Shown piece by piece: positions 20,654-44,104 of a stretch of DNA of 64,000 nt. The position numbers and the translations under genes were made by a program. Within the stretch, counting starts at the first letter, position 1. Each line of letters opens with the position of its first letter. The notes under the pieces are model-generated. The model ran no database searches. It was not told where the DNA came from and saw nothing but the letters and a program-made list of their open reading frames with translations. This stretch comes from Nanobdellati archaeon (GTDB lineage: Archaea > EX4484-52 > GLR71), in contig JAHYJO010000001.1 in the NCBI GenBank assembly GCA_019429125.1, positions 64,001-128,000 of the forward strand, in the 5' to 3' direction.

Positions 20654-23600
20654 TTATTTTTTAATGACTATTGTGCGTATTTTTTCTCTTTTGAAGTAGA
20701 CTGCGATTATTATCAACAGTATCAATAGGTAGATAATCAAGTTTGAGCTACCTATTGTTGATAAGATATTGCCAGTTGGCCCGTTAATTACAGTTACATT
20801 TGTTTGTTCTTTATCTTCTTTGTAGTCTGTAAGCACATATTGGTATATAAGAACATCTTTTGAGTAAAGTGTTGCTTCACCTTGCTTTATTGCAATGTTG
20901 TGTGTTCCTGTAGCAAGGTTTTCAATCTTGTATGTGATTGAAAAACAATCATTTTCATCTAATTCTTGTGTCTTTACAATTTTATAATCTATTACAAGAT
21001 CTACAGTATTTGATTTAGGATTTGTTAGACATCCCTTTAAAGTCATTGTCTGGCCTATGTATAGGCTGTCTGAGAGTTCTATTTCAGAAATGTATGTTGT
21101 TGCGACGTTTTCGTCTGTTGTTTCTGTATTGGTTTCATTTACAATGATTATTGTTGAACTTCTGCTACTGCCTGAACGGCTACTGCTCCCACCACCATTA
21201 TTAGTTTCAGTTGTTACAGTTATTGTTCCTGATAGATTATTGTTTGATGTGTTCTGATCATATGGTATGTATGCTGACAGTTTCAATGTATGTGTTCCTT
21301 CGGAAGCGGTCCATCCAAATTCAACTCCGGTTGTGTTTCCGCTTGCAAGATTATATGTTTTTGTGGTTATTATGTGCCCATTTATTGATAATGTGACATT
21401 TATTCCGTTCTCGTCGTATAGACCTGCGTTTTCAAGTACGCCTGATATAACTATAGTGTTGCCGGTGTTTGCGCTTGTAGGTGCATTGAAACTATTAATG
21501 CGTACGTCATGGGCATACCTAATATCAAAATTGGTCTTATCTGAAAATTGATGTTCTATTTCTGTAATTGTTATTTGTGGATTAAATGTGCCTGTAGTTG
21601 TTGCATTCAAAGTCCATGTGATTGTTGTTTCTTGATTTATTTCAAGTATGTCAATGTCTATTGTCTGAGTTGTAATAAATTCAAGACCGTCTACGCCTGA
21701 GAGTTGTGCCTTTGTGTTTATTGAAGCATCAGTACCTATGTTATTTATCTTTGCAGTTATATTAAACGTTGTACCATAGAGTATTGTTTTATTAACATCT
21801 GATTCTATTGTGATGAATGGTTGCACTGGTTCAGGGAGGTCAAGTATGTTTATCATAACACTTTCTGATGCATTGTATTCTGGTTCAAAAAGACTTATGA
21901 TTGTCATATTTATCTGTTTTGGACCTGATGATGTGCTATTAATAATCCATTCTTGTCTTATTGGTGGTATTCCGTTTACAGTTGGTTCTATGTCTCCAAG
22001 CAATACTGGGTTTGTTGATGATGTTTCAAGACCTGTTTCTAAAGCAATCTCTGCTTTTGTTGCAAGTGATGTGCTATTTCCAGTATTATAGATTACTGCA
22101 GTCACTAAAAATGATCGTCCAAGTGATATGTTGAAAGGCGCTATAGAGCTTACAGAAAGGTCAATGTATAGATGTGTATTTTTTACTGTTATTGTCTTTT
22201 CCTGCGTTATTCCATCAACTGTGATGTATATTGTTCCAGTGCCTGAACTTATGCCTTTAATTTCAAAATCAATCCATGATGCGTTCTGCTCGGTTGTGTT
22301 TGCATATATGGTTGTTATCTCCTTTGAGGATGAACCTACTATTGCTAAGTTTGATGTTGTTGAGATATTTATTGTGGCATTATTACCATTTACAATACCT
22401 TTGTTGTATATACCTATTGCAACTTGTGTTGTATCATTTTCGACAAGTTCTTCAGGGGATGCAATTCTGAATTCATATATTGGTATGGGTGTGGATTGGA
22501 CATAAATTTTTGAAGTTTTAATTTGATTATTATAATCTGCTTCTATATTTATGACATAGTCTCCCCACCATGTAGCTTCCAGTTCAAGTTCATAAGTATT
22601 ATTGTATCCTACAATAATTGATATATTATCAGTTGTGTTTCCCGATATAAGTGTTAACCTTTCAGGGATAGTTATTGTTAATATACCTTCTGCAGTTGAG
22701 TATCCATAGTTTTCAAGATTTATACTTATATTGAACCTATCTGTCTGGTTAATAGTTATATTGTCTGTAGATATTTTAATGTATGGTTTTGTGTCTATTG
22801 TGAAAGATGTCATGTTTGATTCTTGGTTTGAGTTTCCATAGTTGTCTTGACATCTTGTATAAAATGTGTATGCACCGTCTGTAAGAGTTAGTTCTTGCGT
22901 ATGGATCGTTGTGCCAGTTGTTGTGAATGTGTTTGCCATTGCGCTGTAATCTGTATCTATTGTATCATATTTACAGGTTGCATTTTCATTGGTTGTAGCT
23001 CCAAGATTGAATGTGTTTACATGTTGATCTTCTGTTGGTGTAAATGTAAGTATTTGTGGGGGTGTTGTGTCTCTGATTTCAAGTTCAAGATATTTTTCAT
23101 TGTTTGTTTCATTAGATTCATAAATACTATTTGTAGGGTCTACGATGACTTTAAAGTTGTGTATGCCTAGTTTTCCTAATGTGTCATAATTAAATATTAT
23201 TTCTTCAGAACTAATAGTATTTATAGTGATATCTTTTGTTGCAATTAATACTAGATTATCCCATAATTGTATCTGTGTATTTAGAACTTCATCTCCACCG
23301 TTTACAACATGAGCTATAAGATTTATTATTAAGCCTTCACTAACGGGACTAGGTATGTTTGATTCAAATGCAGATATATGAAGGTCTGGTTTGCTTCTTA
23401 CTTCAAGTGTTATTGCGTCTTTTGCAATATTACCTAAAGTATCATTTGCAATAATCATAATAGTATATTCTGTTGGTATCTCTGGTGTTGTAAATGTTCC
23501 GGTATATATATCACCTGCTTTATTCATAGTGATTGTTCCTGCAATACCATTTATTTTTGTGTATACAGTGTCTACAGCGTTTAAATCTGTAATTGTTGCT

Positions 23601-28864: not shown

Positions 28865-30178
28865 ATGAAACGACAAAATTTAATGAAATTGTTTGCGCTT
28901 CTTGTCGCAGCTATGTATATGGTAGTTCCTGCAGCTTTTGCAGAGGATGCAGTAACTATGTTAACTAATACTGCTATAAATACTGCTGTTGGTGATGATG
29001 TCGCTGATCTTAATGACATTGCTGTACAAAGTGACGAAGAGGATTCAGCAGAGGCTGGTGTAACTCCTGATTCTCCGTTATACAGGTTGGATGTTGCGAT
29101 GGATAATATTGGTCTTATGTTTACATTCAATAAGGCAAAGAAAGCTGAGAAGAAGCTTGAGATTGCTAAGGAAAGGCTTAAGGAAGCAAAGATGATGGCT
29201 ATTGCTAATAATTTGGATGCTATGGAAAAAGCAAAAAATCGTCATGATGCGATGCTTCTTTCGGCTGAAGAAGATATTGAAGCAATTAATGGTAATGAGA
29301 CTAAAGCATTGATGAGCAATATTAGAATTAAGTCTATGTTAAAATTACATAATCAGGAAGTTGCTGATGTTGAACAGGAACTTACATTGAGAGTTCGTGG
29401 AAATCTTAAGGATAAACAGCAAGAAAAACTTGATTCATTTATTGAAAGTATGAAAGGCAGTTCTAAGTCTATTGAAGTAAAAGTTCAGAATAAGGAAGAA
29501 AAGATGAAAGCAGTGGTTAAGAGGACACGTAATCTGTCTGATGATGATGTTGATGCTGAATTTGAGAAGATTAATCGTGAAACCTTACGGGAACATATGA
29601 GTGTTAAGGCTCTTGATGTTATAGGTCAGGCTGAAGATGCAATTGGTCGTGCAGAAGATTTGATTGAAAAAAAATCTGAAGCAGGTAAGGATGTGACTTA
29701 TTCAATTGAGCAACTTGACGAAGCTAAAATTATTCTTTTAAAAGCAAAAGAATCTCTTGATAATGATGATGTTGAGGATTCTATTGAACAGGCTTTTAAG
29801 GCTAAAAGGATGGCTGTATATGCTGCAAGCGGGTTTTCTGTTGAGAAACTTATGAATACGCCTATGAAAGATAATGTGGAATTTAATGAAATGAAAGAAC
29901 AGATTCGTGAAAATATGGAAGAACGAGTACAAGTTCGTGAAAATATTCGTGAGCCGAAAGAAGAAATGATGCGGAATCGTGAAAATATTCGTGAGCCAAT
30001 GAAAGATAATAAGGGTGACAAAGATGTTGATTCTGATGATGACTTTGATGATGACTCTGATGATGAGAATAGTAATAATTCATCTAATATATCTTTGAAT
30101 GCATCTGTGTCAGGTACAGATAATAGTATGTCTGGTTCTGTGTCTGGTAATATCGGCAGTAAAAATTCCGGCCAATAA
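28865..30178 (+). CDS. secreted coiled-coil protein (DUF5667-like)
   Basis: Signal peptide; AGVTPDSPLYRLD..M...F...KKAE...A.ERLKEA; acidic low-complexity tail. Confidence 0.8.
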   Translation: MKRQNLMKLFALLVAAMYMVVPAAFAEDAVTMLTNTAINTAVGDDVADLNDIAVQSDEEDSAEAGVTPDSPLYRLDVAMDNIGLMFTFNKAKKAEKKLEIAKERLKEAKMMAIANNLDAMEKAKNRHDAMLLSAEEDIEAINGNETKALMSNIRIKSMLKLHNQEVADVEQELTLRVRGNLKDKQQEKLDSFIESMKGSSKSIEVKVQNKEEKMKAVVKRTRNLSDDDVDAEFEKINRETLREHMSVKALDVIGQAEDAIGRAEDLIEKKSEAGKDVTYSIEQLDEAKIILLKAKESLDNDDVEDSIEQAFKAKRMAVYAASGFSVEKLMNTPMKDNVEFNEMKEQIRENMEERVQVRENIREPKEEMMRNRENIREPMKDNKGDKDVDSDDDFDDDSDDENSNNSSNISLNASVSGTDNSMSGSVSGNIGSKNSGQ

Positions 30179-30228
30179 TAAATTTTAATTTAAAGGGGTT
30201 TTTATAACTCTCCTTTTTTTCTTTTTTC

Positions 30229-30396
30229 GGCACTGTTCAAAAAGTGAGTTATTTTTAATATTTTTAAAATATTGTTTGTTTATAAACTCCGGCAGAAATC
30301 CATTTAATATACACATTTTACGTAGAATTACAAAATAAATGAAGGTATTTAATTAACTACATTTTGTTTGAAATCACTCAAAAAATGAACTGTGCC
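30229..30396. mobile_element. 168-bp MITE with ~26-bp imperfect TIRs and 8-bp TSD
   Basis: Ends GGCACTGTTCA...TGAACTGTGCC; flanked by CTTTTTTC on both sides (30221-28, 30397-404); second copy at 45985. Confidence 0.92.
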
Positions 30397-30547
30397 CTTT
30401 TTTCAAAAGATATATAAACTTGTATTGCTATTATTATGTGTGGAACGGTTTTATTTAAACGTTTCATCGGTTATTTTATTGTTCAATAAGGTCATTTTGA
30501 CTTTTTTTTCGATTTATGTTTTTAATTGATAATTATAGGTGATTTAA

Positions 30548-30988
30548 ATTAGTGAATTAAATGTAGACAAGCTTGTAAGTGAAGGTTGGATTAATGCGTG
30601 GCTTGTGTTTGATACTCAGGCTGTTGATAAAACTGTTCTAAAAGGACTTTTATCTGGTCTTTTGAATAAGATGAAACTTATTAAAGATGTAAAATTTATT
30701 AGTGATTCTCTAACTGAGCCTGAACCAATTGAACCTTCCGAACAGTTTACTAAAAAAGGTATAACTAAAGTCTTCAGTCAGGTGCTTGAGGTTGAGATTC
30801 TTGCAAAAGATTTTGAGACTTTATTGTATTTTGTCATAACATTCGGACCTACAACACTTGATGTTCTTGCTCCGAAATCTATAAAGTTTGATATGCGCCA
30901 GATGCAGAATACGCTTATACTTGTTTCTGAACTGATGCATAGTTATGCGGCGGCCGGTGCTGGTGGCATGGTACTTACAAAAGTATGA
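30548..30988 (+). CDS. conserved-type small hypothetical protein (probable ATT start)
   Basis: Frame is open from ATT 30548 (5 nt after GGTGA SD, preceded by in-frame TAA); the ORF track starts at 30605. Confidence 0.65.
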   Translation: MSELNVDKLVSEGWINAWLVFDTQAVDKTVLKGLLSGLLNKMKLIKDVKFISDSLTEPEPIEPSEQFTKKGITKVFSQVLEVEILAKDFETLLYFVITFGPTTLDVLAPKSIKFDMRQMQNTLILVSELMHSYAAAGAGGMVLTKV

Positions 30989-30997
30989 TTGGTTTAG

Positions 30998-31921
30998 ATG
31001 TTTAAAAATAAATATTATGGGATATGTGTATCTTTTCTTTTACTCTTATTAATATCTGTTCCTGTGTCTGCTTCGCAGATAAGAAATCATGATATTGTTA
31101 TTGCAATTGATGATTTTGGGGTTGCTAAGACCTCTGTTATTGTGGATTATGAATCTTTGACTACTGACGAGATTTATTATTTTGTGTTTGCACAGATTGA
31201 TTCTTTTGGTGCACGGGATGATTATGGGATGCTGTTGTGTAATACTAATAGGTATTCATATGGGACTCAGATAACGTGTAAGCCAAACATTGTTGAAACT
31301 GTAAATTATACTGTATATCTTGATTTTAATATGGTCGGGTTGCAGTCTGTTTCTGCTGATGGTTTCTTTTTCTCTTATGATTATGGTATGAAAATTCCAA
31401 CAAATAATTTTAGCATATCATTTGTGCTTCCTACTGGTACTGCTATGGTCAAGCAGAATTCAGGTATTGCTCCATATTTTCCTGAAGGCGCAGTTATTGG
31501 TAGCACTGATGATGGCAGGCATATTACTGTTACTTGGAGTGTGGATGAACCTGAATTAGGTAGTGATTATTCTTATAAGGTTTTTTATGAGAAAGTTGTG
31601 GAGATTTATGCAAATCGTTGGTTTTATCCTGTTGTTGCATTTTTGAGTATTTTGCTTGTATTATTGTCGTTTATGTTGTTTAAGTTTAAGAAAGCAAGAA
31701 AGATAAAGACTGTTCTTTCTGTTTTGCATGATAGTGAGCGTAAGGTCATTGAGATTCTTATGGCAAATGAAGGTAAGTGCGACCAAAGGCAACTTGTTAA
31801 AGAAACTGGGTTTTCAAAGGCAAAGATGAGTAGGATGATGCTTGACCTTGAGGAGCGGGGTCTGATTACTAAGACTCGCCGTGGCAGGACTAATATTATT
31901 GAGCTTGTTGAGAAAAAGTAA
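30998..31921 (+). CDS. second membrane-associated wHTH regulator (COG2512-like), paralog of 27784
   Basis: Same architecture; DQRQLVKETGFSKAKMSRMMLDLEERGLI. Confidence 0.85.
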   Translation: MFKNKYYGICVSFLLLLLISVPVSASQIRNHDIVIAIDDFGVAKTSVIVDYESLTTDEIYYFVFAQIDSFGARDDYGMLLCNTNRYSYGTQITCKPNIVETVNYTVYLDFNMVGLQSVSADGFFFSYDYGMKIPTNNFSISFVLPTGTAMVKQNSGIAPYFPEGAVIGSTDDGRHITVTWSVDEPELGSDYSYKVFYEKVVEIYANRWFYPVVAFLSILLVLLSFMLFKFKKARKIKTVLSVLHDSERKVIEILMANEGKCDQRQLVKETGFSKAKMSRMMLDLEERGLITKTRRGRTNIIELVEKK

Positions 31922-31970
31922 AGATTGAGTTTTTAAGTTTAGAGTTTTTGGTGGTATTTTTATTTATAAT

Positions 31971-32254
31971 GTCACCTTTTGTCACCTTGATTATATAATA
32001 GCGTCCTCTTCCTGTTATGGGATCCAGTTGAGTAATTAGATTCATTTTAGTTTTTGGACAAATGCATGTTCTGTCTTTTGTGGATTGTTTAGGCCTATTG
32101 GGTTCTTATTGTCATCAACACCTATGATTATCTTTCCCCCTCTGGAATTATAGAATGAGGTTACTAATTGTGCTACTTTTTTTGGGTTTGATAATATCTC
32201 TTTGAACTCTATGTCACTGTTTTCTTCTTGATTTAATAGTTGTTTAAAGTCCAT
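31971..32254 (-). pseudogene. internally deleted Schlafen/AlbA_2-domain gene
   Basis: 70-aa N-terminus (EENSDIEFKE, FYNSRGGKIIIGVDD), then out-of-frame C-terminal-type tail ITGRGRYYIIKVTKGD. Confidence 0.75.
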
Positions 32255-32275
32255 GTGTCTATATTGTTTCTTGTG

Positions 32276-32321
32276 CTTGCATATAATTGGGTTACAACTG
32301 GGGTGGTGATTTTAGGGAGTT
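32276..32321 (-). repeat. divergent copy of the ~58-bp cassette-boundary repeat
   Basis: GCTTGCATATAATTGGGTTACAACTGGGGTGGTGATTTTAGGGAGTT aligns with the 37716 repeat with one gap. Confidence 0.65.
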
Positions 32322-32352
32322 AGAAAAATATTAGAAAAAGAAAAAAGAGGTT

Positions 32353-32766
32353 TTATTTCTTTTTTACTGCCTTAGTGACTTTAGGAAGTGCTATGACGGG
32401 GGGTATTCCTGCCATTTCTGAAAGCATTAGTGCCTTTAGTCCTGCAGTCTTGAAAAGATGGTTTATGATTTCTATGTGTTCTGTCTCTGGCAGTTTTTTG
32501 TTCTTTGTCCATTCGTCCATTATTTTTTTGTTGTCTTCGCCTGTGTATATGATTGTACCTTCTATGTCAAGTTTTGCAACTTCTGGTTCAAATGTACTTT
32601 TGAAACTGAACTTTATGTTTAATATGTCGCTTTTTGTGCCAAATGCGTTGATGTTTCCTTCTTTTACATCTTCAATCTTTGGTACTGTGTTGATTGAAAG
32701 CTTCTGGTTTGTGTTTCCAGTTTTGTTAACATTTAATTTATTGTAGTTTATGCTGATTACACCCAT
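32353..32766 (-). CDS. conserved archaeal hypothetical protein (possibly SecB-like fold)
   Basis: 137 aa, GGTGA SD; pattern F.F.S.FEP....IEG...Y...W...K.LP. Confidence 0.7.
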   Translation of the reverse strand: MGVISINYNKLNVNKTGNTNQKLSINTVPKIEDVKEGNINAFGTKSDILNIKFSFKSTFEPEVAKLDIEGTIIYTGEDNKKIMDEWTKNKKLPETEHIEIINHLFKTAGLKALMLSEMAGIPPVIALPKVTKAVKKK

Positions 32767-33001
32767 GTTATATCACCTATATTTATTTTTGGGATTAAGA
32801 TTTATAAGGGTTTTGATTATTATTTTGTCTTTTTTGGGTTTGTTGGTATTAGGATAGCAGGTTGTTTATAAATAGACTAGGATTGGAATCCCGAAAGCTT
32901 TATAATGTGTGTTTGAAAGTTGTAATCTCTATCGGTAGCTTTTGGCTAAAACCTAACGATGTATCAGAAGGTTTATATGGTTTTTGAGTGTATTATTTAG
33001 T

Positions 33002-34309
33002 ATGAACTCAATTGAGATACTTGAAATATTGAATGATTGGAACTTTTGGAAAAAGAAGCAATTTGTGGGTGTTCGGCGGTCAGACGTTTTTGATAAAATA
33101 AAAAAACTTATAGAACTTGATGAGATTATCGTGATTAGTGGTGCTCGTCGTACTGGTAAATCAACTGTACTTATGCAGATTTGTGAGGATTTGATAGTTA
33201 ATGGTGTTGATTCTTGTGATATTCTTATAATTAATTTTGAGGATCCTCGTTTTAAAAGTATTAATCTTGAATTACTTAATAAAATATATGATGTTTATTT
33301 AACTGATGTATCTGTTGGTTCTGGAAAACAGTATGTTGTTCTTGATGAGGTTCAAATTGTTTCGGGGTGGGAAAAATTTGCTCGTTTTTTGCATGAGAAT
33401 AAAAAAGTGAAGGTATTTGTTATAGGTTCAAGTTCAAAGCTTTTGAGTTCTGAATATTCAACAGTTCTTTCTGGGCGTTATGTTGATATTGTTATGTATC
33501 CTTTATTTTTTAAGGAGTTTGTTGAATTTAATGGTGTGGATATAAAAAATAATTTGGATCTTGTGTCTAAACGCCATGCTGTCAAAAAATTATTTTTACA
33601 ATATATGGAATCTGGGGGTTTTCCGAAAACTGTACTTATTGATGATGCTGATAATCGAAAAGTCTTGCTTAATTCTTATTTTCAGAGTATATTGATGAAA
33701 GATATTGTTATGAGGTATAATATTAACGATGTTTTTAAACTTGAAGAATTGACTAAGTATTATTTGTCAAATATATCCTCTTTGCATTCTTTTAATAAAA
33801 TTAAAAATATTATTGGTGGGAGTATTGACACTGTTGAACGGTATTCATCATATCTTCGTAATGCTTATATGTTATTTTTTGTTCGTAAATTTTCATATAC
33901 TCTTAAAGATCAAATATTGAATCCTCGAAAGGTATATTGTATTGATATGGGTCTTAGAAATTCAGTATCTTTTTATTTTTCAAAGGATTATGGGAAGATT
34001 ATAGAAAATATAGTGTATCTTAAGTTACTTGAAAATAAAGGTTTTGATATTTATTATTGGAAAGATTCTAAGCAGCGCGAAGTTGATTTTTTAGTTAAAG
34101 AGAAAGATAGGATTTGTCAAGCCATACAGGTGTGTTGGGATGTTAGTAATCCTGTCACTAAAAAAATAGAGGTTGATGCACTTTTGTCGGCTCTTTCAAC
34201 ATTTGGTCTTAAAGAAGGTCTTGTTCTTACTGAAGATTATGATGAAGTAGTTGTGATTGATGAGAAAAGAATAACATTTATGTCTGTTTGGAAATGGTTG
34301 TTTTTGTGA
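33002..34309 (+). CDS. AAA_14/DUF4143 ATPase (COG1373-like)
   Basis: GARRTGKS, INFED, LDEVQ, GGFP, KVYCIDMG, YYWK...EVDF, QVCW. Confidence 0.9.
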   Translation: MNSIEILEILNDWNFWKKKQFVGVRRSDVFDKIKKLIELDEIIVISGARRTGKSTVLMQICEDLIVNGVDSCDILIINFEDPRFKSINLELLNKIYDVYLTDVSVGSGKQYVVLDEVQIVSGWEKFARFLHENKKVKVFVIGSSSKLLSSEYSTVLSGRYVDIVMYPLFFKEFVEFNGVDIKNNLDLVSKRHAVKKLFLQYMESGGFPKTVLIDDADNRKVLLNSYFQSILMKDIVMRYNINDVFKLEELTKYYLSNISSLHSFNKIKNIIGGSIDTVERYSSYLRNAYMLFFVRKFSYTLKDQILNPRKVYCIDMGLRNSVSFYFSKDYGKIIENIVYLKLLENKGFDIYYWKDSKQREVDFLVKEKDRICQAIQVCWDVSNPVTKKIEVDALLSALSTFGLKEGLVLTEDYDEVVVIDEKRITFMSVWKWLFL

Positions 34310-34643
34310 GGAGTTATAATTTATATTGGTAACTGTAGGTATTTATGTTTTTAGTTGTTAATTTTTGATAAAAAAGAGCAGTGTTTTTTTAAAGCGTTGT
34401 TTTCTATCTTTATTTTAAAAAAAAGGCTAATATAGTTTTTTTGAACAATTATGTGTCCATTTGAATCTTTGTTTTATTTTTTAAGGGTGTATTATAGGTG
34501 TTATTTAGGTAAGTGGAACTGTTTTCAGACAACCTTATATATACTGGCAGATAATATGTAGTTAATCGGTTCTGTGAGATGTATCAATATTCTCTATAGG
34601 ACGTAGGTTTTTTATTGAACAAATAAAAACTTGGTGAATAAAT

Positions 34644-36791
34644 ATGCAATTAAGAAAAATCGGAACAGCACTTGTTGGTGCTGTATTGACGAGCGCAACT
34701 CTAATGGGTGGCGCTTTGGCTGCTGATTTGGGAACTTTCCCTGCACCATTCGCAACTGATAATGGAATTCAATCCACTATTGTTGTCGGATCAAGTGGAT
34801 CAGTACAAGATGTTATAGGCGCAATAAACATTGGCGCAGCTCTAGCACAGGTTGGCGGTACAGTCGCTGGCGGTGTAGGTGCAACTACAACAGCTACAGG
34901 AGTAAAGACAGATGATTTAAAACTTAATGAAGCTGTAAATGTTTTAGGTACAACTCTTAAAGGCAATAAAATCGCAGGTCTTATTGATACAAAAATAACT
35001 TTTGATGATGGAACAAAATCAAGAAATTATGATGTTCATGAAGAGATAGGTCTAACACCAACTCTTAAGGTTCTTTCCAGTGTTGATGATGCTGATTTTG
35101 GAGCAGAGATTGTACTTGCAACTATAAATAAACCAGCTGTAACATACACATATGTTTTTGAAAAGGATTCAAACATGGATATTTCTAAAATAACAGCTAC
35201 AAATCCACTTGAAGTTACAATACTTGGTAAGAGACTTAAAATAACTAACGTTGATAATGCATCTAATTCAATAACAGTACAAGAAGGTATGGAAGTTGCA
35301 ATGGGTATGGATACTAAAGTAGAAATTGATGGCAAAGTGCTTGAAGTTACTGCAATAGGTCAGGGTACTGCTGCATTCAAAGTTGGTGTACATACGGCAT
35401 TTATTAACTATAATTCCGAGTCTCCTGTAACTAAAGAAATTGGAACATCCGGTATTAAAGTAACACTTGATAACCTTCTTTATACAGATGATGCAGGTTC
35501 AAGACAGGTTCTTGTAACTGCTGGAACATCAACAACTGATACAATAACTGATGGTGATCCAATGACTATGTTTGGTGAAGTTGATGATTCAACTGATGCT
35601 GTATGGCTTTGGTCTATAGAGGCTTCAGAGACTCCTGGTGAGGAGCTCAGAATTGGTGCTAAACATAACCAGAAATATGATGAACTTGATGAAGATGTAA
35701 TAACTCTTGGCAACAAACTATCATTCCCTAATGACTATGCTGCTATATCTCTTGATGCATTAACTGTTTCCGATTTTGGTAGATATGAACTATATTTTGA
35801 AACGGTTGACTTTACTGTTGGTCCAGATGAACAATCTATTACTACAATTGAAAATGTAAATGTTATAACTTTGCGTGCAATTGATGGAAACGATGATGGA
35901 TTTAAAGTCAGTGTACCAGGTAGTATTGATGAAGATGCAGATATTGTTTATATCGGTTTGAAGGATACTACTAATGGTGGTCTTATATATGGGTTTAAAA
36001 ACTCAAATAATAAGAACCAGATTGCATCATACGGTGAGGAATCTGCTGCTGAGTTTAACTTGACTTTTGAAGATACAGTTATGGCTGTTGCAGGTGATAA
36101 TGAAACAAATCAGGTTACTATTACTGATGCAAACAATGACATAATAGCTCTTAATGTAAGTGCTACATGGAATTCATTACAAAAGAAAACTGATGCAGAG
36201 GCTGATGATGTTGTTATTGCAACTAAATCTAAGGGTACAGAAGAAAATGATGTAAGAATGACTTACGGAACTCTTATTTTGGCACCTAAAGCAAATGCAG
36301 AGAAGGATAAAGTAATCTTCGAAGTACCTGCTGAAGTTCTTAAAGTAACTGTAACTGTTAGTGGACCTGGTTCATCTGTAACTACTGTTGCTGGTGTTGC
36401 TGGTGGATACACTCCTGCTGCACTTCCTGCTACAGGTATTGCAAAGCTTGACAGTGATGCTGAAGCTGCAAAGACTGGTAACTTAATCCTAGTTGGTGGT
36501 CCTGCTGTAAACAGTATTGTTGCTGAACTTGCTGCTGCTGGTAAGACTCGAACTACTGCTCAGTGGAGAACTGAAACTGATGGTGTAAGAGATTATAAAG
36601 ACAGTGCTCTTATACAGGCAGTTGACAGTGCATTCACAAACGGTAAAACAGCTCTTGTAGTTGCTGGTTATGGTGCTGATGACACAGGTAACGCTGCATA
36701 CGTTCTACAGAACTATGCTAAGTTCGCTGATCAGCTTGCTGGTAAGTCTGAAGTAACTGTTACAGGTACAACAACTGATGCTGTACAGTAA
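34644..36791 (+). CDS. S-layer protein (S-layer_N/S-layer_C type)
   Basis: MQLRKIG signal, DLGTFPAPF, IVVG...QDVIGA, LILVGGPAVN, VVAGYGADDT; GGTGA SD; strong codon bias. Confidence 0.9.
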   Translation: MQLRKIGTALVGAVLTSATLMGGALAADLGTFPAPFATDNGIQSTIVVGSSGSVQDVIGAINIGAALAQVGGTVAGGVGATTTATGVKTDDLKLNEAVNVLGTTLKGNKIAGLIDTKITFDDGTKSRNYDVHEEIGLTPTLKVLSSVDDADFGAEIVLATINKPAVTYTYVFEKDSNMDISKITATNPLEVTILGKRLKITNVDNASNSITVQEGMEVAMGMDTKVEIDGKVLEVTAIGQGTAAFKVGVHTAFINYNSESPVTKEIGTSGIKVTLDNLLYTDDAGSRQVLVTAGTSTTDTITDGDPMTMFGEVDDSTDAVWLWSIEASETPGEELRIGAKHNQKYDELDEDVITLGNKLSFPNDYAAISLDALTVSDFGRYELYFETVDFTVGPDEQSITTIENVNVITLRAIDGNDDGFKVSVPGSIDEDADIVYIGLKDTTNGGLIYGFKNSNNKNQIASYGEESAAEFNLTFEDTVMAVAGDNETNQVTITDANNDIIALNVSATWNSLQKKTDAEADDVVIATKSKGTEENDVRMTYGTLILAPKANAEKDKVIFEVPAEVLKVTVTVSGPGSSVTTVAGVAGGYTPAALPATGIAKLDSDAEAAKTGNLILVGGPAVNSIVAELAAAGKTRTTAQWRTETDGVRDYKDSALIQAVDSAFTNGKTALVVAGYGADDTGNAAYVLQNYAKFADQLAGKSEVTVTGTTTDAVQ

Positions 36792-36802
36792 ATTGTTTGA
36801 AT

Positions 36803-36838
36803 GAGGAGCTTTATGCTCCTCTTTTTCTTTTCTTTTTT
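36803..36838 (+). terminator. hairpin + T-tract terminator of the S-layer gene
   Basis: GAGGAGC-TTTAT-GCTCCTC followed by a T-rich run. Confidence 0.75.
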
Positions 36839-36884
36839 AATGTTGATTATTTGTTCTTGAAAATTTTATTTTTTGTGTGGTATG

Positions 36885-37246
36885 AGTATTTTTATAAGTA
36901 TTAGGATTCCTTATTCTCTAAAAAATGTGGATATTTATGATTACATCGACTAAAATATTGATTGCTGAATAAGTATCAACAGATTTAGCTTTAAGAAATT
37001 CCGCAGATAGATTCTTTGATTTTATTGATTCAATTAAACAAGATAATATAATTATTGATTTTAAAACGGTTGAATTTATATCTCAATCGTTTGCACATCA
37101 GTATTATTTAAGAAAAAAAGTTCTAAAAAAATAATTAATGAAATAAATATGTCATTAAATATAAAAAAATGTTTAAAATTGTTTCAGAACAAAAACAAAA
37201 AAAGCAAGTAATTACTATGAATGCATCTGATGCGATAAGTATTTGA
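36885..37246 (+). pseudogene. decayed STAS-like (DUF4325-like) gene preceded by the 3' remnant of a partner gene
   Basis: ATG 36937 MITSTKILIAE*VSTDLALRNSADRFF...IIDFKTVEFISQSFAHQY with a stop and frameshifts; overlapping upstream remnant FISIRIPY...IYDYID*. Confidence 0.65.
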
Positions 37247-37313
37247 GAAAGTTAGTTGGTTTTTTAGTGATTGGTGTTGTAGTAATTAATTATATTATAC
37301 TTTTGTATATTTT

Positions 37314-37371
37314 ATTTTTCCAATATGTCTGCATATAATTTAATGATTACTTTTTGTGATGTGTCTATGAT
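37314..37371 (-). repeat. divergent copy of the ~58-bp cassette-boundary repeat
   Basis: 41/58 ungapped identity with the 37716 copy (by manual alignment); overlaps the stop codon of the 37365 ORF. Confidence 0.7.
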
Positions 37372-37709
37372 GTTTTTTCAATAACTTCCCAATGTCCACC
37401 TTTATCAGGACCTATGCGTTTAAGCCGACCTTTTTCTTTTAGCTTCTTGATGTTTTCTTTTATCTTTCTTTGAGAAATATCCATCAATTCAGATAATTCA
37501 TTTGCTGAAATACCAGCATCTTTAAGTATAAATTTTATAATATTCTTTTGATTTTTGGTTAATTTTTCTCCGACCTTTTCAGTGACCTTTTCTCCGACCT
37601 TACCATTCAATATTGAAAGATTTTTTCGTTTAAAAACAGCCACAAACGTACCAAATACATCTTTAAATTCAGTTTCGGGCTCTTTGAATGTTTTTGTTTC
37701 TAAATACAT
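37365..37709 (-). pseudogene. C-terminal wHTH fragment of an AlbA/HATPase- or Fic-type protein
   Basis: KVGEKVTEKVGEK linker plus wHTH ending RIGPDKGGHWEV; N-terminal domains absent. Confidence 0.7.
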
Positions 37710-37715
37710 AATTGG

Positions 37716-37773
37716 GTTTGTTCAACTTGCCTGTATATAATTTAGTGACCACTTTTGGTGGTGTATTTAGGGA
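37716..37773 (-). repeat. 58-bp direct repeat copy 1
   Basis: GTTTGTTCAACTTGCCTGTATATAATTTAGTGACCACTTTTGGTGGTGTATTTAGGGA, identical to 38968-39025. Confidence 0.95.
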
Positions 37774-37801
37774 GTTTTACTTAGTTATGTATTTTTTGAG
37801 A

Positions 37802-38317
37802 CTAAATTTTGCTATTAATTATTTCTTTGACTTTTGATACAAACATTACTGTATTGATTCTTAATTGTTCTATCTCATCATTATCAAATAGTATGTTTGC
37901 GGAATATGATGCAAGTTCTCGTTTGTTTTTTGAGTCTACATAGAATAAGATGTCTTTATAATTAAGAAAAAGTGAGATTAATTCTATATCGTTTCTTGTT
38001 AATTCTTTACTGTAAAATTCTTTAATTAGGATACAGAGTGTTGCAAGGTGACTTTTTGAAGAATAGCCTTTACTTAATATTAATGCCAATGCAGCATGGT
38101 AACAGGCATAATAACATCCGGTTATTGCCCAGTCTGGATAATTCAACTGTATTGCATCTTTTATGAAATTGAGATTATGTTTGGCTTTTTGGAAATGACC
38201 TTTTATTTCTCCTTTTGATGATTCTTTTTTAATTATTTTTTTATGTATAAAATTTTCTATTCTTTTTTCAACTAAATGTGGATTATTAAGCATATTATTT
38301 AATTCGTAGATATTCAT
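37802..38317 (-). CDS. HEPN domain protein (toxin-like)
   Basis: KAKHNL...WAITGCYYACYHAALALI..KG....SH, RELASY. Confidence 0.88.
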   Translation of the reverse strand: MNIYELNNMLNNPHLVEKRIENFIHKKIIKKESSKGEIKGHFQKAKHNLNFIKDAIQLNYPDWAITGCYYACYHAALALILSKGYSSKSHLATLCILIKEFYSKELTRNDIELISLFLNYKDILFYVDSKNKRELASYSANILFDNDEIEQLRINTVMFVSKVKEIINSKI

Positions 38318-38909
38318 CGTAAATGCACGTATAATAGTATATATGGTTGGTTAACGGATAACCTGTCTCAATTGCAGATTGAATGACTGGTTCTTCTTTA
38401 ATTTTAATTTCTTTTTTGAATTTTGGAAGTGTGATCTGAAAATCATTTATTTTCATAGATGTTTGTGTCTCAACATAGTTTTTTGCATTTGTTGTATCTA
38501 TTTTTTTATTTGATATGAGCAAAATATCTATATCGGATTCTTTTGTATAATTATTTTTTGCAGTTGATCCGAAAAGGAACATGATTATCGGTTTTTCGTC
38601 TAAGGTGTCTATAAATATGTTAATTGCGTCTTTTCTGAGAGTATTTAATTGTTGCATTTTTTCTGTGTCAAAACAGGTAAATAATGCATATGTCTCTTTT
38701 GTTTTTTTTATTTTGTATCTTTTCATATTCCCTTCTTTTTCAGAACTTAAGATTCTTGAGAGTTCAAGTTTATTTAGGAATCTGTATGCACTGTTTTCAT
38801 TAAGTTCTGTTTTTCTGGCAAGTTCTCTAAGGTGAATACATTGATTCTTATTTTCATAGAAGAATCTAAGGATTCTTTCAATTCCCGGAGTTATAATATT
38901 GTTTAACAT
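38295..38909 (-). CDS. wHTH-MNT antitoxin-like protein
   Basis: HLRELAR HTH; FGSTAKNNYTKESDIDIL intact GSx10DxD. Confidence 0.9.
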   Translation of the reverse strand: MLNNIITPGIERILRFFYENKNQCIHLRELARKTELNENSAYRFLNKLELSRILSSEKEGNMKRYKIKKTKETYALFTCFDTEKMQQLNTLRKDAINIFIDTLDEKPIIMFLFGSTAKNNYTKESDIDILLISNKKIDTTNAKNYVETQTSMKINDFQITLPKFKKEIKIKEEPVIQSAIETGYPLTNHIYYYTCIYDEYLRIK

Positions 38910-38967
38910 ATTTCAACAATTGTTTAATTGTTTTAAACAGTTATATGTTTGTTGGTTATATCAATAT

Positions 38968-39025
38968 GTTTGTTCAACTTGCCTGTATATAATTTAGTGA
39001 CCACTTTTGGTGGTGTATTTAGGGA
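38968..39025 (-). repeat. 58-bp direct repeat copy 2
   Basis: Identical to 37716-37773. Confidence 0.95.
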
Positions 39026-39068
39026 AATGTCTTTTAATATTTAAAATTATACATACCTTATCTATTTT

Positions 39069-40208
39069 ATGGATAAAATAAAGGCAAAATTGAAGCAGAT
39101 GCCATCTGATTTTGTTGTGAAAGAGATATTACCTGATAAGCGCATTCTTGATATTAATACCCAATTTGATTATCCAAATGAGGGAAATACTTTACATTGT
39201 ATACTTAAAAAAGAGGATTTTGATCAGTTCCGCGCTGTAGGCATCATTGCATCTGAATTGGGAATTGCTTCAAAAGATGTTGCTATATGTGGAACAAAGG
39301 ATAAGATAGCGCATACAACACAGAGAGTGTCTATTAAAGGGTGTAAGAGTGTTGATATAGATAAACTTGTGTTGGGCGACATAAGTATTAAATATCTTGG
39401 CAGAGGGCCTGAATTGCGCATTGGTGAGCTTTACGGCAATCACTTTGAGATTGTTTTGAGAGGCATTGATATAGATAAAGAGGAACTCTCAAAATATCTT
39501 CAAAAAATAAAAGACAATCCTAAATTTCCCAATCATTTCGGTGAGCAGAGGTTTGGGTCTATAAGACCTATATCACACATTGTAGGAAAACATGTAATTC
39601 TTGGTGATTTTAAGGGTGCTGTGCTTGATTATATCTGTCTTTGCTTTCCTCGGGAGTCTGAAATGATACAAAAAGCCAGAATTAAGGCAAAGAGTGACAT
39701 TAAGGCTGCTCTTGAACTGTTTCCTAAGTCTTCATATTATGAGCGGGTGATGATGTCTCATCTGATTGAGAAACCAGAGGATTATCGTGGTGCCTTTTTT
39801 AGGTTGCCACCCAATCTTCAGAAACTTATGGTGCACGCTTATCAGTCATATCTTTTTAATAGGATTTTAGATAAAGTAATAGCTTCAGGTTTTGGTAATC
39901 GTATGCTTGAGATACCTCTGTTCGGGTTTGGGATGAACATACCAAAAGATCCTAAATTAGTTGCTATAATGCGCGAGGTCCTTAAGGCAGAGAATATTAG
40001 TCTTGGTAATTTTAGGGATGATTCTTCAAGACAATTGGGGTCAAAAGGTGGTCGCAGAAAGGCATTTCAGACTGCAGAACAATTTAAGGTTGTAGAAATC
40101 GGTGACGATGAACTTAATTTAGGAAAAATAAAATGTAAAATATCTTTCTCGCTTCGTAAAGGGACATATGCAACTGTTTTTTTAGGTAATAATTTTGACT
40201 TGTCTTGA
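39069..40208 (+). CDS. truD: tRNA pseudouridine(13) synthase TruD
   Basis: PSDFVVKE, GTKDK.A.TTQ, GNHFEI, PNHFGEQRFG, HAYQSYLFN, KGTYAT. Confidence 0.93.
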   Translation: MDKIKAKLKQMPSDFVVKEILPDKRILDINTQFDYPNEGNTLHCILKKEDFDQFRAVGIIASELGIASKDVAICGTKDKIAHTTQRVSIKGCKSVDIDKLVLGDISIKYLGRGPELRIGELYGNHFEIVLRGIDIDKEELSKYLQKIKDNPKFPNHFGEQRFGSIRPISHIVGKHVILGDFKGAVLDYICLCFPRESEMIQKARIKAKSDIKAALELFPKSSYYERVMMSHLIEKPEDYRGAFFRLPPNLQKLMVHAYQSYLFNRILDKVIASGFGNRMLEIPLFGFGMNIPKDPKLVAIMREVLKAENISLGNFRDDSSRQLGSKGGRRKAFQTAEQFKVVEIGDDELNLGKIKCKISFSLRKGTYATVFLGNNFDLS

Positions 40209-40211
40209 AAT

Positions 40212-40646
40212 TTATTTGTTTGCTCTAATTATCCATGCTGTATATGTTTCATTGTTGCCTAAATCACAGTCACATCTGCAGTGTTTTTCGGTATTTGCAT
40301 CTATGAACGGGTCAAGGTCAGTCGGTTTTTCTGATGGGTAGCATGAACAGTCATAGTTTAAGTCAGGGTGGTTTTGTATTGCAAGACATTGTTCTTTTGC
40401 AAAACTATTGTTGTAGCTTGTAAACATTATCCAGCCAGTACCAAGTATAAGTATAATAAATATCGTAATGACTATGGTTTTTGTAAAGTCTTTTTTTGGT
40501 ATTTCGTCTTTTTGAGAAGTCTTGTTTTTTGTATCTGTCTCTTTAGTCTCAATTACTTTTTTATTGATATCTTTTTTTTGAGTATTTTTAAGTTTATTAT
40601 CATTATCTTCAATTTCTTTTTCGGTGGTATCTTTTTCCCCCATCAT
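40212..40646 (-). CDS. small single-pass membrane protein with Cys-rich ectodomain
   Basis: Charged N-terminus, TM, C...CSC...CRCDC. Confidence 0.7.
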   Translation of the reverse strand: MMGEKDTTEKEIEDNDNKLKNTQKKDINKKVIETKETDTKNKTSQKDEIPKKDFTKTIVITIFIILILGTGWIMFTSYNNSFAKEQCLAIQNHPDLNYDCSCYPSEKPTDLDPFIDANTEKHCRCDCDLGNNETYTAWIIRANK

Positions 40647-40684
40647 GTATCACATAAAATATTGTAAGTATATAAGTATTTGGT

Positions 40685-41386
40685 TTATTGGTATATATTA
40701 AAGATGGTCTCAAGTTCGTCTTTTTCGACAAAACCTTTTCTTATAGTGTCAAAATTGATTATCATTGCTGGTAAATTATCTATATCTATATTGTAGCTAT
40801 TACGTATTGTGCTTATCAATGGGTCTTTATCATATTCACCGTCTATTGATAGAACTACAAGTTTTCCGTGTTTTTTGTATCCGTTTTCTTGTTTTGTGTC
40901 ATCATTGTATTTTTTTACAAATTCGTCAAGTATGTATCCTTGTATTTCTGAAGTTTTATCATCTATCTTGTAAAAATACAGTATAGGTGTATACTCATCT
41001 TTGCATGAATCCTGATAGTTGTGTATATGATTATAAAATTTTATTTCCATCAGGAAATATCTGCGTTTCAGGTATTCAAATTCTGTTTTTTTGAAATCAG
41101 ATGCACTACCGTATCGTTGCAGTTCACGGCCAGTCTCGCCAAGGTCTTTACTTATCATTTCTATTCTAGGGGTTAGTATCTTACAATCTATGTTTCCTAT
41201 GTTTTCTAAAAATATCCATTCTATATTATAGCTTTCACTGTTTAGTTCATTGTCTTTTATTATGTTTAATACTTCATTAGTCCTGTAATTGTCAAGAACC
41301 CAACCTATCATGATACCGCTTGTGAAGATGACTATTGCTGCTATAAGGCTTGTTATAAATATGTGTTTTATGTATTGTTCTTTCAT
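40685..41386 (-). CDS. membrane-anchored protein with degenerate thioredoxin-like C-terminal domain
   Basis: N-terminal TM, helical middle, ILYFY...QGYILD...P.MIIN. Confidence 0.65.
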   Translation of the reverse strand: MKEQYIKHIFITSLIAAIVIFTSGIMIGWVLDNYRTNEVLNIIKDNELNSESYNIEWIFLENIGNIDCKILTPRIEMISKDLGETGRELQRYGSASDFKKTEFEYLKRRYFLMEIKFYNHIHNYQDSCKDEYTPILYFYKIDDKTSEIQGYILDEFVKKYNDDTKQENGYKKHGKLVVLSIDGEYDKDPLISTIRNSYNIDIDNLPAMIINFDTIRKGFVEKDELETIFNIYQ

Positions 41387-41442
41387 TTAAAGTCCTCTGT
41401 TTTTGATTATGATATTAATTTCATCAGATATATTTAAAAATG

Positions 41443-42690
41443 CTACCATACTCGTTTTGATTTGCGTAATTCAAGAATTAAGGAACATATCCAGCTTAGA
41501 GTTACAATCCATGAATATACGGTGAGGAATAGTAAAAATGCTATTATAGATTTAGGGGATAAATCTATTTTATTTTCTATAAGTTTGTGTGCTTTATACA
41601 TCATGTATAATCCAATTGCTGTTATTATTAATAGTGGTATTGTTATCTTAAAATTTATGGTCAATAATGTTTGTTTTATTGTGAGTATATCTATTAGATT
41701 AAGTATTGAGGTCTCTGCAATTATTGTTCGTTGATATATGTATTTTAACCAAGTAAATATGCCATTAAAGACAATTGTTGTGGTTAAGAATACTATAAAT
41801 ATTCCTAGTATATTAAGGGGTAGCATGAATAGTCCTAAGAGCCCGAATTCTTTGTTTAAATGCATGTGTTTGTATTTTCGTGCATTATATATGTAACCTC
41901 TAAACCATCTGATTCTTTGACGCATCAATGCTTTAAACGTGTCTGGTGCATTCGTGTGTGTTATGCTTCTAATCTCAAATGCGATGTGTTTATGTTTGTT
42001 GTGGAGGCGTAATGCAATTTCTAGGTCTTCAGTTATGTTGTCAGCTTCATCAAAATAACCTTCAGTTTTGAGGTCTTCTGTCCTGTATACACTTAAGACA
42101 CCAGGGGTTACGTACATACAGTTTATGAATGAATATAATGTTCTAAATATTGCTGCATACATGTATTCAAATACTTGAATTTTTTCAATAATTTTTTTGT
42201 GATTTCTAATTAATATACTGCTTGAGCAACCTGATATTTCTTTCTTTCTGAAATGTTGGACAAGGCGTATTACTGATTCTTTTTCGATGTATGAATCAGC
42301 ATCTACACAGGCGAACAATTCTTTTTTTGATCTTTTTAGTGCAACATTTAATGCATGGCCTTTGCCATGATTTTTTGTGCTTATGACTATTACGCCTTCT
42401 TTTTTGTATTTTTTTGCGATTTTTGCAGTGTTGTCTTTTGAGCCGTCATCTATTACAAATATTTCGTATCTGTCTTTGGGATAGTCTATATTTAATATTG
42501 ATTCTATTGTTTTTGCTATTGTAGTCTCTTCATTATAGGCTGGGATTGTGAAAGTTATTGAGGGGTAATAGCCTTTTTTAGGTTTAATACTTTCTTCAAT
42601 CTCTTTTTTACTTAGAAAAAGTAGATTTATCCAGATGATTGAAATGTATAATCCTATGAATGAAATTATGAGCATGACGTATTCAAGCAT
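41443..42690 (-). CDS. processive GT2 glycosyltransferase (cellulose synthase/PgaC-like)
   Basis: PAYNEE, DDGSKD, GKG.ALN, DAD, TED, QRIRW; N- and C-terminal TMs. Confidence 0.9.
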   Translation of the reverse strand: MLEYVMLIISFIGLYISIIWINLLFLSKKEIEESIKPKKGYYPSITFTIPAYNEETTIAKTIESILNIDYPKDRYEIFVIDDGSKDNTAKIAKKYKKEGVIVISTKNHGKGHALNVALKRSKKELFACVDADSYIEKESVIRLVQHFRKKEISGCSSSILIRNHKKIIEKIQVFEYMYAAIFRTLYSFINCMYVTPGVLSVYRTEDLKTEGYFDEADNITEDLEIALRLHNKHKHIAFEIRSITHTNAPDTFKALMRQRIRWFRGYIYNARKYKHMHLNKEFGLLGLFMLPLNILGIFIVFLTTTIVFNGIFTWLKYIYQRTIIAETSILNLIDILTIKQTLLTINFKITIPLLIITAIGLYMMYKAHKLIENKIDLSPKSIIAFLLFLTVYSWIVTLSWICSLILELRKSKRVW

Positions 42691-44051: not shown

Positions 44052-44104
44052 TTTTTTTGTATGTAATTAGAATATGATTTAATTCGTTAAAAATTAAAAA
44101 GTAA

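Follow-up and report, generated by a model that had tools for sequence, protein, structure and literature searches.

Probable duplication of a resident promoter by an MNT-HEPN cassette in a small-genome archaeon

The probably duplicated promoter and its cassette

The window analysed here, a 64,000-nt stretch of DNA from a Nanobdellati archaeon (G000:C16:64001-128000, that is, contig C16 of the source assembly G000, which has 1,158,795 bases in 32 contigs and ~34% G+C), contains a gene pair for an MNT-type nucleotidyltransferase and a HEPN-domain protein that stands between two copies of a 58-nt sequence. We consider it probable that these copies, A and B, are the promoter of one gene, duplicated on insertion of the MNT-HEPN pair, and that the wider family of related sites is a promoter/operator motif of the genus and not an integron-like system. 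Copy A (37716-37773, minus strand) and copy B (38968-39025, minus strand) are identical at 58/58 positions with a spacing of 1252 nt, just as the initial annotation had described them, and are the sole full copies of the 58-mer on either strand of all 32 contigs of the assembly. In minus-strand orientation, it consists of TCCCTAAATAC, an ACCAC-CAAAA-GTGGT palindrome, CAC-TAAATTATATAC, which holds the B-recognition element (BRE) and TATA box, and AGGCAAGTTGAACAAAC. B is the upstream copy of the duplicated promoter, with palindrome, BRE/TATA and ~17 nt, and adjoins the truD-side flank; A, the downstream copy, is followed by a further 6 nt (CCAATT) and then by the ATG at 37709.

The inserted cassette (37774-38967, minus strand) is 1194 nt long and comprises its own promoter/operator, MNT and HEPN, with 58 nt between B and the MNT start and 28 nt between the HEPN stop and A. 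The MNT protein (38295-38909, minus strand; 204 aa, with an N-terminal HTH) matches Pfam NTP_transf_2 (E 1.5e-8; 35.3 bits, over the cut-off), Polbeta (1.6e-8) and HTH_IclR (3.7e-4), and the NCBIfam model MntA_antitoxin at E 2.1e-6 with 27.6 bits against a cut-off of 60. The HEPN protein (37802-38317, minus strand; 171 aa), whose start overlaps the MNT end by 23 nt, matches the Pfam HEPN family (E 5.8e-6, 26.9 bits against a cut-off of 22) and no NCBIfam model, and where the Rx4-6H catalytic motif was looked for in its translation, only an N-terminal R-x5-H (RIENFIH) is visible. As predicted genes the two share with type VII toxin-antitoxin (TA) systems the feature of adjacent, overlapping reading frames. 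The only open reading frames (ORFs) of the insert are MNT and HEPN, and no integrase or transposase gene was found in it.

The locus was compared with that of relatives, numbered G001 onwards among our comparison genomes, which are different species with 81-88% DNA identity in the flanks. MNT-HEPN is missing from the syntenic locus in G003, G006 and G007. In G007, the interval between the S-layer gene and truD is reduced to 16 nt between the aligned flanks, the S-layer flank being joined to the truD promoter, with no site and no gene. In G006 it contains a small DUF4325-like gene and 45 nt that remain of the end of a winged helix-turn-helix (wHTH) gene, and G003 has one copy of the site together with an intact 442-aa SLFN_AlbA_2 + HATPase_c_4 + HTH_24 gene. 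In G000 the same interval reads, in order, DUF4325-like pseudogene, a further site C (described below), a wHTH ORF, A, HEPN, MNT and B. The outer flank of B and the site align with the single truD-adjacent site of G003, while the outer flank of A aligns with the start of the G003 gene (A with the first codons, window 37662-37773, versus L003 1472-1581, 74%). As the flank of B fits the truD side and that of A the gene start, one resident site has therefore become two. From its sequence and position, the 58-mer is predicted to be the promoter of an AlbA_2-HATPase_c_4-wHTH-type regulator gene.

The cassette itself appears to be foreign and self-sufficient, with a conserved promoter of its own. 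Identity of the MNT protein is 41-53% with homologues from a different family (f6, genus g8) of the order and does not exceed 32% in its own genus; four public protein clusters, located on short contigs, reach 71-74% identity. Directly ahead of the MNT start, the cassette upstream region (38910-38967, minus strand) contains a TTTAAAA box and the palindrome TTAAACAATTGTT.AA, found by a repeat scan at 38893-38946, which is probably the autoregulatory operator of the HTH-bearing MNT. The region is conserved with that of the homologue in G035 (alignment A6, mean column identity 84%), most strongly over the ~50 nt ahead of the start, box and palindrome included. The G035 homologue has no copy of the motif upstream, and the motif was for this reason rejected as a native part of MNT-HEPN in the A/B cassette. 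The sequence homologous to G035 starts within ~10 nt of the end of B, and repeat identity ends sharply there. A related-locus search with the MNT protein against the genome contigs returned 52 pattern matches, none of which was confirmed.

We propose that the MNT-HEPN cassette, with its own promoter/operator, would have inserted into the resident promoter in the lineage of G000, and that the whole 58-nt promoter would have been duplicated in the process, as in insertion with long target duplication. After insertion, B would stand ahead of the cassette and A would still serve the resident gene. As to the route, staggered breaks may have been filled in, or a circle that carried the short homology may have integrated in a Campbell-type event. 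The initial annotation had offered a portable promoter duplicated by recombination as one of its two readings, and for A and B this was essentially right.

Another account would make A and B old neighbouring promoters of one regulon that gene conversion has lately homogenised, the MNT-HEPN pair and the AlbA_2 gene having always been driven by the motif. Such an arrangement has parallels: wHTH-nucleotidyltransferase genes lie +123 to +187 after a motif copy in five places (G000, G007, G001, G009 and G002), the motif-MNT-HEPN modules of G002 and G009 are syntenic across two genera, and the repeat pair on contig C32 of G000, described below, may be an instance. At the locus itself, however, the pair is missing in the three relatives, the closest MNT relatives found are in another family and without the motif, and identity stops at the very point where the G035-homologous cassette sequence starts. 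We regard gene conversion as an improbable origin of the A/B pair.

A predicted promoter/operator motif of the genus

The motif to which the 58-mer belongs has, on the minus strand, a palindrome of about tcACCcAC-N4/5-GTGgTtAC, then a BRE/TATA element yAAAtTATATrC, and then ~24 nt to the start codon. With a profile built from nine copies, 15 places were found in G000, 14 of them at E <= 0.004 and one at E 0.16; five had not been part of the seed set. Seven of the 15 are followed by an ORF whose start stands at +67/+68 counted from the beginning of the profile, 24 nt beyond the TATA box, and the spacing recurs in other genomes, at +71 to +73 on a 61-position model. All copies but C are oriented toward a downstream gene (14/15 in G000). 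A sequence-only covariance model (R1), made from 16 aligned copies, was run over 41 genomes across the order. Each of the eight genomes of the genus has 1-18 matches to it, the two other genera of the family have a single match apiece, and 2/31 genomes of other families match weakly. Within the genus there are ~15 motif copies per genome. The members are diverse, with a mean pairwise identity of only 55%; the A/B variant and the G003 site are 79% identical.

The largest class of genes downstream of the motif encodes AlbA_2-HATPase_c_4-wHTH regulators, and in G000 the motif lies upstream of five of the six AlbA_2 N-domains that score over the Pfam cut-off. Other motif copies precede genes for DUF1016/YhcG nucleases, wHTH-nucleotidyltransferases, Bro-N proteins and ORF6N proteins. 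Across species, the motif is kept ahead of orthologues of a TctA transporter, a secreted protein, two small proteins and AlbA_2 genes. From this layout, transcription would start from the TATA box of the motif, and the ~24-nt spacing from TATA to start codon implies a leaderless or nearly leaderless mRNA. The palindrome is predicted to be an operator at which a dimeric wHTH factor binds; the most likely candidates are the AlbA_2-type regulators, which would then be autoregulated. The AlbA_2 regulator family of G000 looks decayed, with seven N-domain matches of which only two belong to full-length frames (448 and 470 aa), the rest being fragments.

Within the window, the initial annotation had grouped A and B with two further copies in the same orientation, and all four do share one orientation. 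Copy D (about 32269-32321, minus strand), which is among the five places outside the seed set, has a layout like that of A and is followed by a 70-aa AlbA_2 remnant whose ATG is at +67 counted from the beginning of the profile. The TATA-to-ATG distance is 24 nt for the genes after both A and D, in agreement with the TATA boxes that had been noted before two start codons. A profile built without D still recovers it (E 1.3e-5), and nhmmer gives E 1.7e-4 with D outside the seed; D is a true and robust member of the family, as had been claimed. Copy C (37314-37371, minus strand), which overlaps the stop of the ORF at 37365-37709, agrees with A at 41/58 ungapped positions (71%), the value first reported. 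This score ties for the top non-self score genome-wide and is far above background, and each of the genome places that score 31-36 against the 58-mer is a motif copy. The status of C as a family member stood only in part, since it is like A/B but was missed by a profile built without it, being absent among the 22 best matches (up to E 3.4). To other family members C is 38-58% identical, so that its likeness is specific to A/B and not to the family consensus. C is not followed by the start of any ORF of at least 40 aa, and a C-like relic was looked for downstream of the G003 gene and not found. We read C as a probable decayed local duplicate, the relic of an older duplication of the A/B promoter. 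The 'family' of sites is two separate things, a genus-specific promoter/operator module and the local duplication of one promoter.

Two other parts of the initial description were modified. The array of sites said to lie between the S-layer gene and truD holds for A, B and C, but D is upstream of the S-layer gene. An 11-nt half-site, AACCCAATTAT, had been reported to recur; its match between 32283-32293 and 37708-37718 is no better than chance in a genome of this size (BLAST E = 14).

The initial annotation had also raised an integron- or pdif-like array, in which a tyrosine recombinase encoded elsewhere would use the palindrome as its core site and the copies would act like integron attC or Xer/dif sites. 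The palindrome with its two inverted arms of 5-8 nt, the site-ORF-site runs in one orientation and the TA/defence-type cargo would suit such an array, but the 58-mer folds no better than shuffled sequences. Of the proposed structure, the 5-bp ACCAC/GTGGT hairpin alone is predicted, without the outer stem, and the folding energy of the 58-mer (-3.9 kcal/mol) corresponds to z = -1.07 on the plus and -0.97 on the minus strand, with 34 and 38 of 200 shuffles folding at least as well. The two halves of the palindrome show no compensation among 16 copies, where 69.6% of cells are paired versus 70.1% in shuffles and 306/500 shuffles score at or above the observed value. The GTTGAAC that had been matched to the integron core is present in A and B, but reads GTTGAAT in the G003 site and is unconserved across the 16 aligned copies (alignment A2). 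Because the halves are conserved without compensation, folding is not in excess and GTTGAAC is unconserved, a protein-bound operator beside BRE/TATA fits these data and a folded attC site does not.

As to a recombinase, the initial annotation had seen none in the window, and there is none among the ORFs of 30000-42000. A scan of the whole genome of G000 found only two tyrosine recombinase genes, both on contig C25, at 2830-3312 and 21152-21634 (L051 and L052), ~18 kb apart. The usual complement of XerA-type recombinase genes is one, and the presence of two could be taken in favour of a dedicated enzyme. Both pass the cut-off of 220 for XerA (NF040815), at 226.8 and 277.5 bits, but against the integron integrase model TIGR02249 they reach 213 (the shorter gene) and 175.4 bits, below its cut-off of 265. 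Tests for integron features (attC folding, a GTTRRRY core, an adjacent IntI-type integrase, hybrid sites) were all negative, and the Xer/dif comparison failed as well, the arms being 5-8 nt, the spacer 4-5 nt and the copies direct repeats. Furthermore, the duplicated segment measures 57, 58, 67 or 68 nt depending on the case, with ends that differ relative to the motif; the flanking copies are duplicates; every cassette has its own promoter; and the distance from TATA to ATG is fixed ahead of core-like orthologues. Given no significant folding, covariation, conserved crossover core or adjacent recombinase, we consider a site-specific array highly improbable.

Further scans bear on the sites themselves. 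An attachment site formed by a tRNA fragment was ruled out for the 58-mer, as the closest tRNA in a tRNA scan is at 44104. An Rfam scan of 30000-42000 (E <= 10) gave seven matches, all at chance level; A, B and D are free of them, and one (sn668, 37362-37412, E 9.4) overlaps the end of C. In metagenome scans, an exact 23-mer from the site had no match, and a degenerate 20-mer matched four places, all without the palindrome and hence chance matches.

Among the neighbouring genes, the 114-aa wHTH ORF after A (37365-37709, minus strand; Pfam HTH_24, E 3.8e-9) corresponds to the C-terminal part of an AlbA_2-HATPase_c_4-wHTH regulator, its residues 10-110 aligning with residues 348-438 of the 442-aa G003 protein (E 7e-18). 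A similar short ORF is present in G001, and the ORF is either a truncated remnant or a short paralogue. The DUF4325-like (STAS-like) pseudogene (36937-37246, plus strand) is 88% identical in DNA to a small gene that is intact in G006, where the ORF matches DUF4325 at E 5.7e-4, under the cut-off; in G000 it is interrupted by a stop at codon 12 and by a frame shift. The AlbA_2-family remnant after D (32042-32254, minus strand) is N-terminal (Pfam SLFN_AlbA_2, E 1.3e-12). The variable region is bounded on one side by the S-layer gene, which is on the plus strand and ends at 36791, and on the other by truD (39069-40208, plus strand), which has its own TTTAAAA box and for which TruD homologues were found. 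The conserved block on the truD side begins at AATATTTAAAATTAT in 4/4 aligned genomes. The closest named relatives of the TruD protein carry a Nanohaloarchaea label (82% identity) and an Aenigmarchaeota label (60%).

Other repeat-flanked cassettes

A self-comparison of the whole G000 genome yielded 24 pairs of direct repeats of 35-400 nt at a spacing of 400-4000 nt. Most are paralogues, tRNA genes or repeats within large proteins, and five bracket a single accessory gene or gene pair. Besides the A/B pair on C16 (58 nt, 100%, around MNT-HEPN), these are a 68-nt repeat (67/68) on C32 around a DUF1016/YhcG gene, ahead of an AlbA_2 gene; a ~125-nt repeat (88%) on C23 (13757-15177; L079 1263-2682) around a second MNT-HEPN pair, ahead of a Bro-N gene; a 64-nt repeat (94%) on C27 (33311-34906; L095 812-2407) around an AAA_14-DUF4143 ATPase gene; and a 52-nt repeat (96%) on C23 (6033-7662; L094 834-2463) around an ATPase_2-DUF234 gene. 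The duplicated flanks of these further cassettes span 52-129 nt overall, and the C27, C23 and C32 inserts have one or two genes each, none of them a recombinase.

The target at C27 consists of the last codons and terminator (3' end) of a class II aminoacyl-tRNA synthetase gene, and the empty site, with one copy and both flanks aligned, is found in G007, G003 and G004. At the same spot, G006 carries a different insert of 1.2 kb with a 336-aa ORF and 35-nt flanking repeats, and the two different inserts therefore mark an insertion hot spot. A gene of the same family as the C27 cassette, for an AAA_14-DUF4143 ATPase, is also located in the window at 32984-34309, between D and the S-layer gene; no flanking repeats stood out there in the repeat scan of 30000-42000, which was not aimed at this gene. 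The repeat around the second MNT-HEPN pair, on C23, corresponds to the region upstream of the Bro-N gene and has no relation to the motif; this cassette has its own tandem operator (GTGCCAAAAAATGGCAAAG, twice), and the HEPN stop codon is within the duplicated target. In two cases the stop codon of a cassette ORF lies inside the duplicated target. The 52-nt sequence flanking the C23 DUF234 gene occurs in three copies with a hairpin, TTTCTGATTGAAAATCAGAAA, next to an ORF for a ParE toxin; it may represent either a repeat of the terminator type or a small mobile one. The C32 case belongs to an accessory island (G000:C32:1900-10800; L015 and beyond) arranged as motif-DUF1016-motif-AlbA_2 (333 aa, truncated), which also contains a 249-aa ORF on the opposite strand, two stretches resembling Bro-N and a 196-nt repeat whose copies are separated by 3.4 kb.

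Beyond G000, repeats of 57 nt (54/57) surround another MNT-HEPN pair in G002:C13 and repeats of 67 nt (88%) a third in G003:C72, and among 30 MNT loci fetched order-wide, six are bracketed by direct repeats of 37-224 nt. A comparison of the termini of seven cases showed no shared ends or inverted repeats, and a transposon-like element was rejected. The initial annotation had held that constant cargo, and copies found only as ordinary promoters, would tell against its cassettes: the copies are indeed ordinary promoters, but the cargo between the S-layer gene and truD varies among relatives and site-gene-site arrays recur. Because cassettes in G000 are flanked by unrelated duplicated targets, this recurrence is better explained by long target duplication. 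Repeats of more than 30 bp that face a single copy in an insert-less relative were found at A/B (with G003) and at C27, and no mobility gene is in the inserts at A/B, C27, C23 or C32. Target duplication is demonstrated by single-copy empty sites at C27, and we infer it for the other additional cassettes. The cargo, MNT-HEPN and other single genes, is not the restriction-modification cargo of the original description, and we therefore file these cases as a variant of insertion with long target duplication.

An alternative is that the motif copies shuffle cassettes by homologous recombination, in that a circle of motif and gene would loop out and re-enter at a similar copy by a single crossover. 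The ~15 copies would then form a dispersed landing pad that works without a dedicated recombinase and leaves motif-gene-motif behind. Same-strand motif pairs 990-1455 nt apart are present in G003:C72 (three in a row), G006:C54, G001:C47, G007:C146, G002:C13 and G000 C32/C16, and very similar motif variants precede different families, for example DUF1016 in G007 and AlbA_2 in G006. Unequal crossing-over between neighbours is evident from tandem duplicates of motif+ORF6N and DUF1016 units that are 86-90% identical over 260-519 nt. Yet the 55% mean identity of the family makes it a poor substrate for homologous recombination, the A/B variant is resident and orthologous to the G003 site while the MNT relatives examined are without the motif, and three G000 cassettes are flanked by duplications unrelated to the motif, which is hence not required. 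Shuffling of this kind is unlikely for A/B. Tandem duplicates of whole motif+ORF6N or DUF1016 units were observed in G007:C146 (L057), G001:C57 (L025) and G007:C106 (L041).

The exactness of the A/B repeat raises the question of the assembly, in which one chromosomal site and a separate circular or tandem cassette of 1252 bp sharing the 58-mer could have been joined by threading the loop once. A common metagenome assembler uses k = 59 among its k-mer sizes, and k-1 then equals the 58 nt of the repeat. The imperfect repeats of the parallel cases (67/68, 54/57, 88% and 94%) cannot arise in this way, and the cassette would still need to carry the resident promoter sequence; such an artefact is very improbable.

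Several points nevertheless weigh against insertion with duplication of a passive promoter. From the assembly alone, an exact 58-nt repeat fits an integrated cassette as well as an empty site accompanied by a circle of 1252 bp that shares the 58-mer. Since the relatives compared are different species, the insertion has only a rough date. B may be functionless, being separated from the MNT start by 58 nt and the cassette having a promoter of its own. Transcription start and promoter activity are predictions from spacing alone, and the binding factor is a candidate. In the DUF1016 genes, the motif and a leader of ~115 nt are homologous in four copies from three genomes; the C32 repeat may thus belong to the cassette, or the copies may be kept alike by gene conversion. 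In G002 relative to G009, the extra unit is a motif plus an ORF6N remnant downstream of the conserved motif-MNT-HEPN module, an arrangement other than a simple MNT-HEPN insertion. Some cases may reflect gene conversion or homologous exchange between motif copies and not fresh duplication. Lastly, motif copies host two of the five repeat-flanked G000 cassettes, which were found independently of the motif, together with those of G002:C13 and G003:C72, so that the role of the motif may go beyond that of a passive target. Motif copies occupy ~0.08% of the genome against these 2/5 cases, an excess to be read with the caveat that motif-bearing genes sit in accessory regions and that the other motif cases were found by motif search.

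A more specific model would be a dedicated, recombinase-independent route that drops selfish cassettes of 1.1-1.5 kb at gene boundaries and duplicates 50-130 nt, with the AlbA_2-type promoter as its preferred landing pad, possibly by way of a bound protein (perhaps an AlbA_2-domain regulator) that sets two staggered cuts. The cargo would be TA pairs, DUF1016, AAA_14-DUF4143 and DUF234 ATPases, and the hosts small-genome archaea. Formally, such a route would resemble the duplication of the repeat in CRISPR spacer integration. We hold this model to be decidedly unlikely.

Significance and comparison with known systems

The sites do not constitute a new integron-like system. What they offer is, on the one hand, a lineage-specific promoter/operator module that marks a small regulon around AlbA_2-HATPase_c_4-wHTH regulators in an uncultivated archaeal genus and, on the other, a sign that long target duplication, so far documented for bacterial restriction-modification, also moves TA pairs and other selfish single genes in archaea with small genomes. 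A single genome of 1.16 Mb holds at least five cassettes with flanking repeats, and empty or single-copy sites were found in relatives for two of them. A lineage with frequent and partly motif-aimed insertion is a good place to work out the mechanism, and the flanking repeats predict easy loss, amplification and exchange of cassettes. Insertion with long target duplication of restriction-modification systems was reportedly also the subject of work by Nobusato et al. in 2000.

As an operator, the motif can be compared with that of the TrmB-type regulators of Thermococcales, a TATCAC-N5-GTGATA palindrome beside BRE/TATA. The two have in common a CAC-N5-GTG-type palindrome, a fixed place relative to BRE/TATA and the role of a regulon mark, but differ in sequence, lineage and presumed factor. 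The pdif or Xer modules of Acinetobacter plasmids are small, often carry TA pairs and are bounded by recombinase sites with inverted arms; pdif sites are 28 bp long, with 11-bp arms and a 6-8-bp spacer, and alternate in orientation around the module. Unlike these, the repeats described here are direct, 52-129 nt long and of a sequence that differs by case.

Integron attC sites range from 57 to 141 nt, and integron insertion gives hybrid sites and no duplication. The gene cassettes of integrons, including archaeal ones, resemble ours in having short ORFs in one orientation between repeated sites and in commonly carrying TA cargo, as far as the available text of Ghaly et al. 2022 (PMC9668308) describes them, but here there is no attC folding, there are no R'/R'' cores and no nearby integrase, the sites are duplicates and not hybrids, and each unit has its own promoter. 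Promoter reuse through mobile promoters, in the accessible part of the account by Nijveen, Matus-Garcia and van Passel 2012 (PMC3575422), places very similar promoters ahead of unrelated genes within and between genomes; the motif differs from what is described there in its palindromic predicted operator, its link to one regulator family and a duplication event that can be reconstructed.

The closest known system is insertion with long target duplication. According to the portion of Furuta, Abe and Kobayashi 2010 (PMC2853133) that was available, bacterial restriction-modification units are flanked by direct repeats of more than 30 bp (46-423 bp reported), the repeat is single at the empty site of a related genome with both flanks aligned, and no mobility gene is present; the repeats sometimes overlap the 3' end of a gene, and a cycle of invasion, amplification via the repeats and release was proposed. 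In the same portion of the survey, no archaeal case passed the filters. Our literature searches found insertion with long target duplication together with toxin-antitoxin only in reference lists, and returned nothing for HEPN/MNT 'flanked by direct repeats'. The present cases differ from the published ones, as described there, in their cargo (a TA pair, DUF1016, AAA_14-DUF4143 and ATPase_2-DUF234), in their small-genome archaeal host and in the two of five that lie at one promoter motif, and the double-strand break made by a restriction enzyme has no counterpart here. With those bacterial units, to the extent that the available text covers them, they share a selfish, addiction-type unit, no integrase or transposase, direct repeats of more than 30 bp and a single-copy empty site, and the overlap with a gene 3' end is common to those units and to our C27 case.

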